Assembly (NCBI GenBank): GCA_947478525.1 | Contig: CANJVU010000004.1 | Location: forward strand, 22,458-86,457 | Source of the DNA: Thiotrichales bacterium | GTDB lineage: Bacteria; Pseudomonadota; Gammaproteobacteria; Francisellales; CACEW01 | Length of the DNA stretch: 64,000 nt | Direction: 5' to 3' | Shown here: piece after piece, positions 8,489-8,915 of the stretch | Numbering within the stretch: the first letter of the stretch is position 1 | How the letters are laid out: the number at the start of each line of letters is the position of its first letter | Program-made: the position numbers and the translations under genes | The notes under the pieces: generated by a model | What the model was told of the DNA's origin: nothing | Database searches by the model: none | The model's input: only the letters and a program-made list of their open reading frames with translations

Positions 8489-8798
8489 TCGCATCTACTT
8501 TGAAACTCACAAAAGTGCCGCCCAGGGTGCTGCCAAAACTGCCAAAAGTACCCTTTTGACAGCAACGGCAGCAGCCCACCAGGGAGATTGTGAGAAATCA
8601 GCCACCACTTTCGGCAGTAATGGCAGCATGTCACACCAGTACTTTGAGAAAATCGACAAGCCAAAAATCCTACAATGGCTTTGGCATATCGGCGAAACTG
8701 ATCAGGATATCATGGATGAAATCATTGAACGCTGTCGGATTAAAAAAGATGCTTGCCAATATTTTCTCAAGCGAGCGGAGGAGGTACCAAAAAACTGA
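8472..8798 (+). CDS. hypothetical protein (108 aa) whose N-terminal third is encoded by a palindromic repeat unit
   Basis: Strong RBS AGGAGG 5 nt upstream of the ATG. Overlaps the upstream stop by 17 nt. No recognisable family. Confidence 0.6.
   Translation: MSKWTDRIYFETHKSAAQGAAKTAKSTLLTATAAAHQGDCEKSATTFGSNGSMSHQYFEKIDKPKILQWLWHIGETDQDIMDEIIERCRIKKDACQYFLKRAEEVPKN
8529..8627. repeat. 99-bp palindromic repeat unit, copy 1 (inside the 108-aa CDS)
   Basis: About 88-90% identical by eye to 8817-8915. Contains multiple CTGCCAAAA / TTTTGGCAG motifs. Confidence 0.9.
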
Positions 8799-8816
8799 AA
8801 AAGGTGCCAGTGAGGC

Positions 8817-8915
8817 GCTGCCAAAACTGCCAAAAGTACTCTTTTGGCAGCAACGGCAGCAGCCCAGCAGGGGGATTTTGAGAAATCCGCCCCTACTTTC
8901 GGCAGTTTTGGCAGC
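8817..8915. repeat. 99-bp palindromic repeat unit, copy 2 (intergenic)
   Basis: 21-nt terminal inverted repeats (8817-8837 vs 8895-8915, 1 mismatch). Inner 10-bp hairpin at 8827-8836 / 8841-8850. Confidence 0.9.

Follow-up and report, generated by a model that had tools for sequence, protein, structure and literature searches.

The Rep helicases of SaPIs, which are pathogenicity islands in Staphylococcus aureus, load themselves at origins made up of 5-6-nt iterons immediately downstream of rep; each side of such an origin has two or more iterons, which are oppositely oriented, and Rep reads the origin through its C-terminal winged helix (PMC9371898). In one integrated element, a DUF3987 protein has been shown to be a 5'-3' helicase that makes up the replication module (PMC11724360), and a DUF3987/DUF5906 'prim' gene is required for replication of PICMI satellites (PMC10803314). 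The crr of the satellite phage P4 is made up of two direct repeats of 120 bp, each of which holds five 8-bp repeats in both orientations; it begins 46 bp after the stop codon of the alpha gene, and a predicted coding sequence (CDS) overlaps one of its copies (NC_001609). In PIME elements, an oriV immediately downstream of repA has been defined by cloning (bioRxiv 10.64898/2026.01.12.698999). The present analysis concerns a 64-kb stretch of contig CANJVU010000004.1 from a Thiotrichales bacterium (the whole stretch is referred to as the window), in which a repeated element with GGCAG cores lies directly behind the DUF3987 (YfjI-type) helicase gene of an integrated island.

The element comprises two units of about 100 bp. 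Unit 1 is located within a small open reading frame (ORF) of 108 aa (ORF108) that follows the helicase gene, and unit 2 in the noncoding DNA beyond it. Judged by sequence comparison, the element is best explained as the iteron origin or helicase-loading site of the island, read by a predicted winged helix of the helicase (probability about 0.6). We hold it to be very probable that it is a conserved protein-binding cis element that is functionally tied to DUF3987. The repeats, their linkage to DUF3987 across phyla, a constraint at the level of the DNA and a concerted change of the arms were observed and are described below.

Like the SaPI origins, the window element has short iterons directly behind a helicase ORF, at least two in each orientation, on an island that bears an integrase, and a winged helix in the helicase, here a predicted one. 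It differs from them in the iteron sequence, in the 9-bp pairing of the sites and in the usual location of the array inside coding sequence. The helicases also differ, SaPI Rep being MCM-like with 3'-5' polarity, whereas the DUF3987 family is reported to move 5'-3' (PMC11724360). The central A+T-rich block of the SaPI origins is found in only some of the relatives of the window element (locus L188); in the window, an A+T-rich tract abuts unit 2. The resemblance to P4 consists of two direct repeats of ~100-120 bp with five or six short repeats each, ~45 bp past the stop codon and with one copy under a CDS, on an island with a P4-type integrase and an AlpA/Vis-type gene. However, the iterons are of the GGTGAACA type in P4 and have GGCAG cores here, P4 has two crr units where most relatives of the window element have one, and the P4 repeats recur 4.5 kb away in a separate ori, whereas the island lacks another cluster of the 9-mer. 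The alpha protein of P4 carries a different helicase domain, and the protein described here matches DUF3987 only. With the PIMEs the island shares the int-alpA-rep organization and a (here putative) iteron origin directly behind the replicase gene; the PIME origin differs in being intergenic, with direct iterons, a DnaA box and A+T-rich regions, and in its RepA-type replicase and conjugative helpers.

The principle of iterons beside or inside a replication gene is already well known. The initial annotation of the window had proposed an origin resembling P4 crr, and this proposal is strongly supported by the comparisons reported here, in which the element is a conserved cis element tied to the 3' end of DUF3987 genes. 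At slightly less than even odds, it would represent a phylum-spanning, undescribed class of origin for DUF3987 (YfjI-type) islands, in which GGCAG-type iterons occupy the disordered linker of a small protein and the core and peptide repeats change together.

Repeat units and their linkage to DUF3987 genes

A repeat search of the window returned the two units (Table 1) as a direct repeat of 103 nt with 89% identity and a start-to-start distance of 288 bp, in agreement with the two ~99-bp repeats at this distance that had been noted initially. Terminal inverted arms, also noted at that stage, were found in both units; they span 22 nt in unit 1 (8528-8549 and 8607-8628, 86% complementary) and 28 nt in unit 2 (8811-8838 and 8894-8921, 89% complementary). 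The inner hairpin of unit 2 was recovered at 8817-8836 and 8841-8860 (20 nt, 80% complementary). The roughly six CTGCC/GGCAG sites in both orientations that had been ascribed to each unit were mapped as pairs of cores with 9-bp spacing in the order >> << <<, where > and < denote the two orientations. The building block of each unit is the 9-mer CTGCCAAAA or its complement. It occurs seven times in the window, six of them within the two units and the remaining one at 56678, beyond the limits of the island; shuffled sequences gave a mean count of 1.55, and none of 100 reached seven.

The sites of unit 1 lie at offsets of +42, +66/70 and +121/125 from the helicase stop codon. In unit 2, the cores are located at 8818 and 8827 (>) and at 8842, 8851 (core only), 8897 and 8906 (<). 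The layout is the same in both units, but the sites are weaker in unit 1 (for example TTTTGACAG and TAATGGCAG); those of unit 2 are closer to the consensus, and this noncoding unit has retained all of them. A second conserved and partly palindromic motif, AGGnnnnTTTyAGAAAT, was found 3' of each << pair, with instances at 8582-8599 (in unit 1), 8628-8650, 8870-8887 and 8916-8940, and likewise after the << pairs of the related loci L054, L047, L059, L081 and L174 (related loci carry the prefix L throughout). With this motif behind each << pair, two internal direct repeats result, 55 bp apart.

The A+T-rich tract that adjoins unit 2 is the likelier candidate for an unwinding region than the T-rich tract at 9240-9320, which had been suggested for this role in the initial annotation; no specific support was obtained for the latter, and the former lies nearer. 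Three independent assemblies of the same organism (SRR6787039, ERR3761218 and ERR3761215) match the window without mismatches and all end at 9006, inside the A+T-rich tract past unit 2. This shared contig end suggests a branch point, past which the replication module would be followed by cargo that varies or by a different junction.

The linkage to DUF3987 was examined in two samples. For the protein-first sample, 80 metagenome loci were chosen solely by the similarity of their proteins to the C-terminal 150 aa of the window helicase (61-73% identity); 75 of them extended at least 200 nt past the helicase stop codon and could be evaluated. Core pairs (CTGCC/GGCAG) with 9-bp spacing were present within 400 nt downstream in 66 of these 75 loci, with two or more pairs in 50; in a control segment of 400 nt inside the helicase gene they were present in one. 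The modal layout was >> at +42 to +52, << at +70 to +80 and << at +125 to +135, which unit 1 matches exactly. Four more loci, retrieved via helicase fragments, gave the same result.

For the motif-first sample, public genomes and viral contigs were scanned with the exact 18-mer CTGCCAAAACTGCCAAAA, giving at least 174 loci. Among the loci listed, a DUF3987 homolog was identified in ~27 by tblastn (25-50% identity) and in one more by Pfam. In ~20 of the DUF3987-linked loci listed, the motif was located 20-70 bp past the stop codon, and >> always came first with << after it. Behind DUF3987 genes the 18-mer was found in at least seven phyla, as well as in IMG/VR contigs: the taxa are Alpha-, Beta- and Gammaproteobacteria, Desulfobacterota, Gemmatimonadota, Verrucomicrobiota, Bacteroidales and Acidobacteriota, and the hosts include Agitococcus, Methylotenera, Aromatoleum, Thiomonas, Falsiroseomonas, Desulfobacterium, Desulfobacula and Syntrophaceae. 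Most of the loci listed (Nostoc, Actinomarina and others) are without a DUF3987 gene and were treated as chance occurrences or unrelated coding repeats. A BLAST search of annotated phage and plasmid collections with positions 8400-9400 gave no match, and an Rfam scan placed no RNA family in the region. Three >> << palindromes were encountered in loci without a detectable DUF3987 gene, their neighbours being a type I restriction R subunit gene (L067:5903-5943), a P4-type integrase gene (L096:5914-5952) and a Panacea antitoxin gene (L136:997-1038); islands that have decayed may have left them behind.

A second unit was also found in L015 (Aromatoleum anaerobium LuFRes1, with the two units 1.3 kb apart), L215, L232, L233 and L238, against a single unit in most relatives; unit 1 appears to be the canonical element and unit 2 a lineage-specific noncoding duplicate. 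Other arrangements were found in L041 (Falsiroseomonas), in which at least eight tandem 9-mers TTTTGGCAA stand behind the DUF3987 gene (7700-7870), and in L188, in which pairs of TTTTGGCAC and inverted pairs of GTGCCAAAA surround an A+T-rich block (aattatatatataatataatattg; 3710-3960). Iteron pairs that flank an A+T-rich block, as in L188, are a classic origin layout.

These arrangements bear on the possibility that the sites form an operator array for a transcription regulator (AlpA, ORF108 or the winged helix of the helicase) with no role in replication. Iterons commonly serve as operators too, dimeric repressors would be suited by paired sites in both orientations, and the sites stand at the junction of the alpA-helicase operon and the downstream genes. 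Their position, however, is locked to the helicase stop codon and not to a promoter, the element persists where the downstream gene varies or is missing, and the tandem sites of L041 and the A+T-flanking sites of L188 look like origins. We therefore consider a purely regulatory role unlikely, although not negligible. A packaging or transfer signal, that is a pac/cos-like or oriT-like site for mobilization by a helper phage or plasmid, is quite improbable. Inverted repeats are typical of oriT, and the related int-alpA-DUF3987 islands are phage satellites (PICMI), the packaging signals of which are not known; but no relaxase or terminase gene is linked to the element, the linkage is specific to the helicase gene, and conservation over phyla with different helpers would be hard to explain.

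Reading frames and constraint on the DNA

Unit 1 was confirmed to lie inside the 108-aa ORF (Table 1), with AGGAGG as a ribosome-binding site 5' of the ATG, and encodes GAAKTAKSTLLTATAAAHQGDCEKSATTFGSNGS there. Unit 2 had been described as intergenic and read in a different frame; the first part holds, and the second does not, since 288 = 96 × 3 and the copies are in register. Unit 2 is untranslated because it lies behind two in-frame TGA codons (8796-8798 and 8811-8813), after which there is no start codon. The only ORF that spans it (8590-8994) has a GTG start and overlaps ORF108 in another frame.

The remote homologs of ORF108 (Table 1) were obtained by an exhaustive HMMER search; a word-indexed protein search returned only the self-match. 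ORF108 and its homologs were without a family in Pfam, PHROGs and NCBIfam, and no match to ORF108 was obtained by tblastn in the annotated phage and plasmid collections. Full-length homologs share an N-terminal MxxWLERAxxEI, a TA.TA...TAVTAV...SIGSNGS segment and a well-conserved C-terminal domain. The TA.TA...GS.GS block is present in all of them, so the 33-codon block is ancestral to the ORF108 family; within it the iterons are read in frame as peptide, AAKTAK corresponding to GCTGCCAAAACTGCCAAA and GSNGS to GGCAGTAATGGCAGC. Unit 1 corresponds to aa 19-52 of ORF108. In a model calculated with AlphaFold2 (AF2) on the family alignment, the predicted local distance difference test score (pLDDT) is below 50 for aa 21-51, between an N-terminal helix (aa 3-20) and a three-helix domain (aa 63-104, pLDDT above 90), and unit 1 is thus predicted to encode a disordered linker. 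A fold search with this model gave no significant match, the domain being a generic three-helix bundle. A hidden Markov model of the ORF108 family gave no matches among the small ORFs of the loci found with the 18-mer; hence the C-terminal domain of ORF108 is not a fixed companion of the element.

The alternative reading of the initial annotation, a mobile palindromic element inserted in frame in the manner of Rickettsia palindromic elements (RPEs) or of miniature inverted-repeat transposable elements (MITEs), fails the test that the initial annotation itself had set, since these homologs contain the block. As in the RPEs, palindromic DNA of ~100 bp with terminal inverted repeats is read in frame within a protein-coding gene, over 33 codons. 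RPEs, however, are dispersed and insertion-polymorphic, whereas the element here is confined to a single locus of the window, syntenic with DUF3987 and present in the homologs of its host protein, with no presence/absence polymorphism of the 33-codon block among full-length sequences. There are no other copies in the 64-kb window, dozens of genomes have the element at a fixed place with respect to DUF3987, and no target-site duplication is evident. An RPE or MITE origin has next to no chance of being correct.

Across the loci, translation of the cores gives LPKLPK, TAKTAK or NCQNCQ, and FGSFGS, TAVTAV or GSNGS. A single ORF may use two or three of the frames, as in L054, L047, L059 and L061, which combine LPKLPK with TAKTAK in >> pairs 43 nt apart; the NCQNCQ reading was found in L176 and L109. 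No credible ORF covers the cores in L015, L081 and L040, and possibly none in L176 and L109. Because the same cores are found in three frames or in no ORF, the constraint is on the DNA and not on the protein. Selection on the ORF108 peptide (TAKTAK...GSNGS), with unit 2 as a decaying fragment of a duplicated gene, would account for the conservation of the peptide motifs in homologs and for the register of the two copies. It is scarcely credible in view of the frame usage just described and of the predicted disorder of the segment; moreover, protein selection leaves the reverse-complement symmetry unexplained, and the borders of the duplication are those of the palindrome and not those of the gene.

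The ori of phage lambda lies inside gene O and the oriV of RepA_N plasmids inside rep, and in both cases the gene that hosts the iterons encodes the iteron-binding initiator. The window element is similar in that its iterons are in frame and code for a linker that is variable and has little structure, with conserved protein parts on both sides. It differs in its host gene, which encodes a small protein of the ORF108 family, the likely binder being the upstream helicase. The element is a clear example of a DNA signal that, in three reading frames, dictates which residues make up a protein linker, and it explains the odd low-complexity peptides TAKTAK, GSNGS, ATxAT/VAxVA and AIPAIP/RIARIA in small hypothetical proteins.

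In diverged lineages the layout is kept and the core is altered at all sites together. The core variants by lineage are CTGCC, CTGAC, TGCTAC, TGCGAC, GCTAAT and others. CTGAC is combined with GTCAG in L261 and L266, and TCGCCGAAA with TTTCGGCGG in L263; TGCTAC is found in L179 and L182 and TGCGAC in L180 and L181, with inverted repeats of 16/20 to 18/22 at the same position in the ORF. L180 also lies behind a DUF3987 gene (Pfam E 6e-90). Classification of the left and right arm peptides in the 138 homologs gave nine (I,I), 16 (II,II) and one mixed combination and none of the reverse mix (hypergeometric probability ~3e-6, in which independence is overstated as the sequences are related). Further repeats with a 3-aa period, among them AIPAIPAI/RIARIA, ANFANLAN/ISKISKIS and VPSVPSVPS, were observed as reverse-complement pairs in the ORF108 homologs P0008, P0026, P0028, P0035, P0037 and P0060, which implies further iteron classes embedded in coding sequence.

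Covariation of the arms between lineages would also be expected of a hairpin in RNA or single-stranded DNA, such as a cruciform, an RNase III site, or an element that stabilizes or attenuates the helicase mRNA at its 3' end. As single-stranded DNA, unit 2 folds well (-30.6 kcal/mol, z -5.5; unit 1, -20.8 kcal/mol, z -2.3), and the arms of L015, L081 and L176 form near-perfect 19-bp stems with loops of 3-5 nt. However, the sequence itself and not mere pairing is kept across phyla, and there is a 9-bp period inside the arms. Layouts such as >> >> << and arms at least 55 nt apart occur, and no U-tract follows. In close relatives the five-base cores are invariant while the 4-nt spacers of opposite arms are non-complementary (AATA versus TAAC/TAAT), so that pairing is not the conserved feature. 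The 9-bp period, the tandem arrays and the non-complementary spacers fit iterons read by a protein better than a selected stem, and a hairpin function is improbable. Like the operator array and the packaging or transfer signal, it accounts for fewer of the observations than an origin does.

Candidate reader and proposed function

The last 150 aa of the helicase were modelled with AF2 on an alignment (mean pLDDT 85.5). The model shows helices, then a helix-turn-helix and a beta hairpin (helices 87-93 and 101-113 and strands 117-124 and 127-134 of this segment). The top matches found with Foldseek in the PDB were all winged-helix DNA-binding proteins (PadR, MarR, a QsrR-DNA complex and RTP). The C-terminus of the helicase is predicted to be a winged helix and is the candidate reader of the repeats.

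In the proposed mechanism the island (5596-20638) would be excised and the iterons bound by the DUF3987 helicase or a recruited partner, probably via the C-terminal winged-helix domain of the helicase. The bound protein would assemble in both orientations and open the adjacent A+T-rich DNA, in analogy to the self-loading SaPI Reps at their iteron origins and to P4 alpha at ori/crr. Unit 1 would be forced into double duty as a cis element and as the disordered linker of ORF108, and unit 2, as a noncoding duplicate of this lineage with purer sites, would be comparable to the doubled crr of P4. We infer both the identity of the binding protein and the start of replication upon its binding.

Several points weigh against an origin read by the helicase. 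The Foldseek matches have probabilities of up to 1.0, yet their E-values are weak (0.012 or above). In loci that share the iterons, conservation of the winged-helix segment does not exceed that of the helicase core; the comparison of this segment with the class-II locus L180 was uninformative, the identity being 25%. Another protein of the island, for example ORF108 through its N-terminal helix or its three-helix domain, could be the binder, and the sites could primarily regulate transcription. No DnaA boxes with one mismatch or fewer were found in 8400-9500. Downstream of yfjI in CP4-57 of Escherichia coli K-12 there are no comparable repeats, and the element is thus not universal to DUF3987 genes. 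Finally, this copy of the island may not be self-replicating. PF13148 (DUF3987) was the only Pfam family matched by the window helicase and no Toprim or primase domain was detected in it by the family search, whereas its relatives in L185, L187 and L188 are fused to or preceded by Toprim_3 or Zn_ribbon_DnaG primase domains. The window island may rely on a primase provided in trans.

A very large group of integrated elements is marked by DUF3987 helicases; it includes PICMI-type satellites, YfjI-type islands and islands that carry pAgo or defence genes. The replication genes of these elements are known; the literature examined contained no mapped origin, and the window element is a concrete candidate for one. 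No DUF3987 paper with an origin as its stated subject was found in the literature search, in which the GGCAG motif was not mentioned either; searches on YfjI and on P4 crr text returned nothing useful. As the element is recognizable from sequence, it could serve as a marker in the annotation of islands and of incompatibility or specificity groups. If the proposal is true, the origin specificity of thousands of satellites and islands could be readable from a protein sequence.

The tRNA-Met island

The island is ~15 kb in length and lies between rimP, which stops at 5542, and tRNA-Met. It is bounded by a 14-nt direct repeat, TGGTTGCGGGGGCA, the distal copy of which equals the 3' end of tRNA-Met. 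At its far end, alpA, the DUF3987 helicase gene and the 108-aa ORF follow each other in this order, with the repeat units at the junction with the downstream genes. The helicase has 591 aa according to the gene calls of public assemblies, and the mechanical ORF begins at 6593. The coordinates of the features are given in Table 1.

Table 1. Positions in the window of the repeat element, the associated genes and the island borders.
Feature	Position	Strand	Details
Distal island border, direct repeat TGGTTGCGGGGGCA	5596-5609		blastn-short 14/14 versus 20625-20638
AlpA-family excisionase/regulator gene	6502-6699	+	PF05930, E 8e-17
DUF3987 (YfjI-type) helicase gene	6713-8488	+	PF13148, E 4e-84; PHROG 2373, DNA helicase
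Predicted winged-helix part of helicase C-terminal domain	8294-8437	+	AF2 on an alignment
ORF108, small conserved protein	8472-8798	+	Start overlaps helicase stop; 138 remote homologs
Unit 1, apparent canonical element	8526-8628	+	>> 8530-8547 (CTGCCAAAA x2)
Unit 1, left << pair	8554-8571	+	Sites TTTTGACAG, CAACGGCAG
Unit 1, right << pair	8609-8626	+	Sites TTTCGGCAG, TAATGGCAG
Unit 2, apparent noncoding duplicate	8814-8916	+	>> 8818-8835, << 8842-8859, << 8897-8914
Small palindrome GGATTTTGAGAAATCC	8872-8887		One instance of second motif AGGnnnnTTTyAGAAAT
A+T-rich tract abutting unit 2	8925-9035		64-80% A+T, peak 8975-9024; candidate unwinding region
P4-type integrase gene	19223-20500	-	Adjoins tRNA-Met
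tRNA-Met, integration target	20625-20701	-	Proximal att repeat 20625-20638

A TIR-domain gene (18515-19219), which may be a defence gene, lies directly beside the integrase gene. The cargo includes, at 10646-13159, an orphan Hcp (T6SS_HCP) gene, behind which come LysM-containing and uncharacterized genes. The leader and first codons of alpA are duplicated ~375 bp upstream (6063-6171 versus 6438-6546, 87% identity), leaving a 57-aa alpA-like ORF (6127-6300) that diverges after the start; the duplicate may be left over from another island, second or tandem, or from recombination. Elsewhere in the window, a tmRNA gene of 416 nt was located at 51086-51501. The tag peptide assigned to it by ARAGORN is unusually long and atypical (GKKEEALEAANDAVIQVTRKKAA); either the tag call may be wrong or the tmRNA may be unusual.

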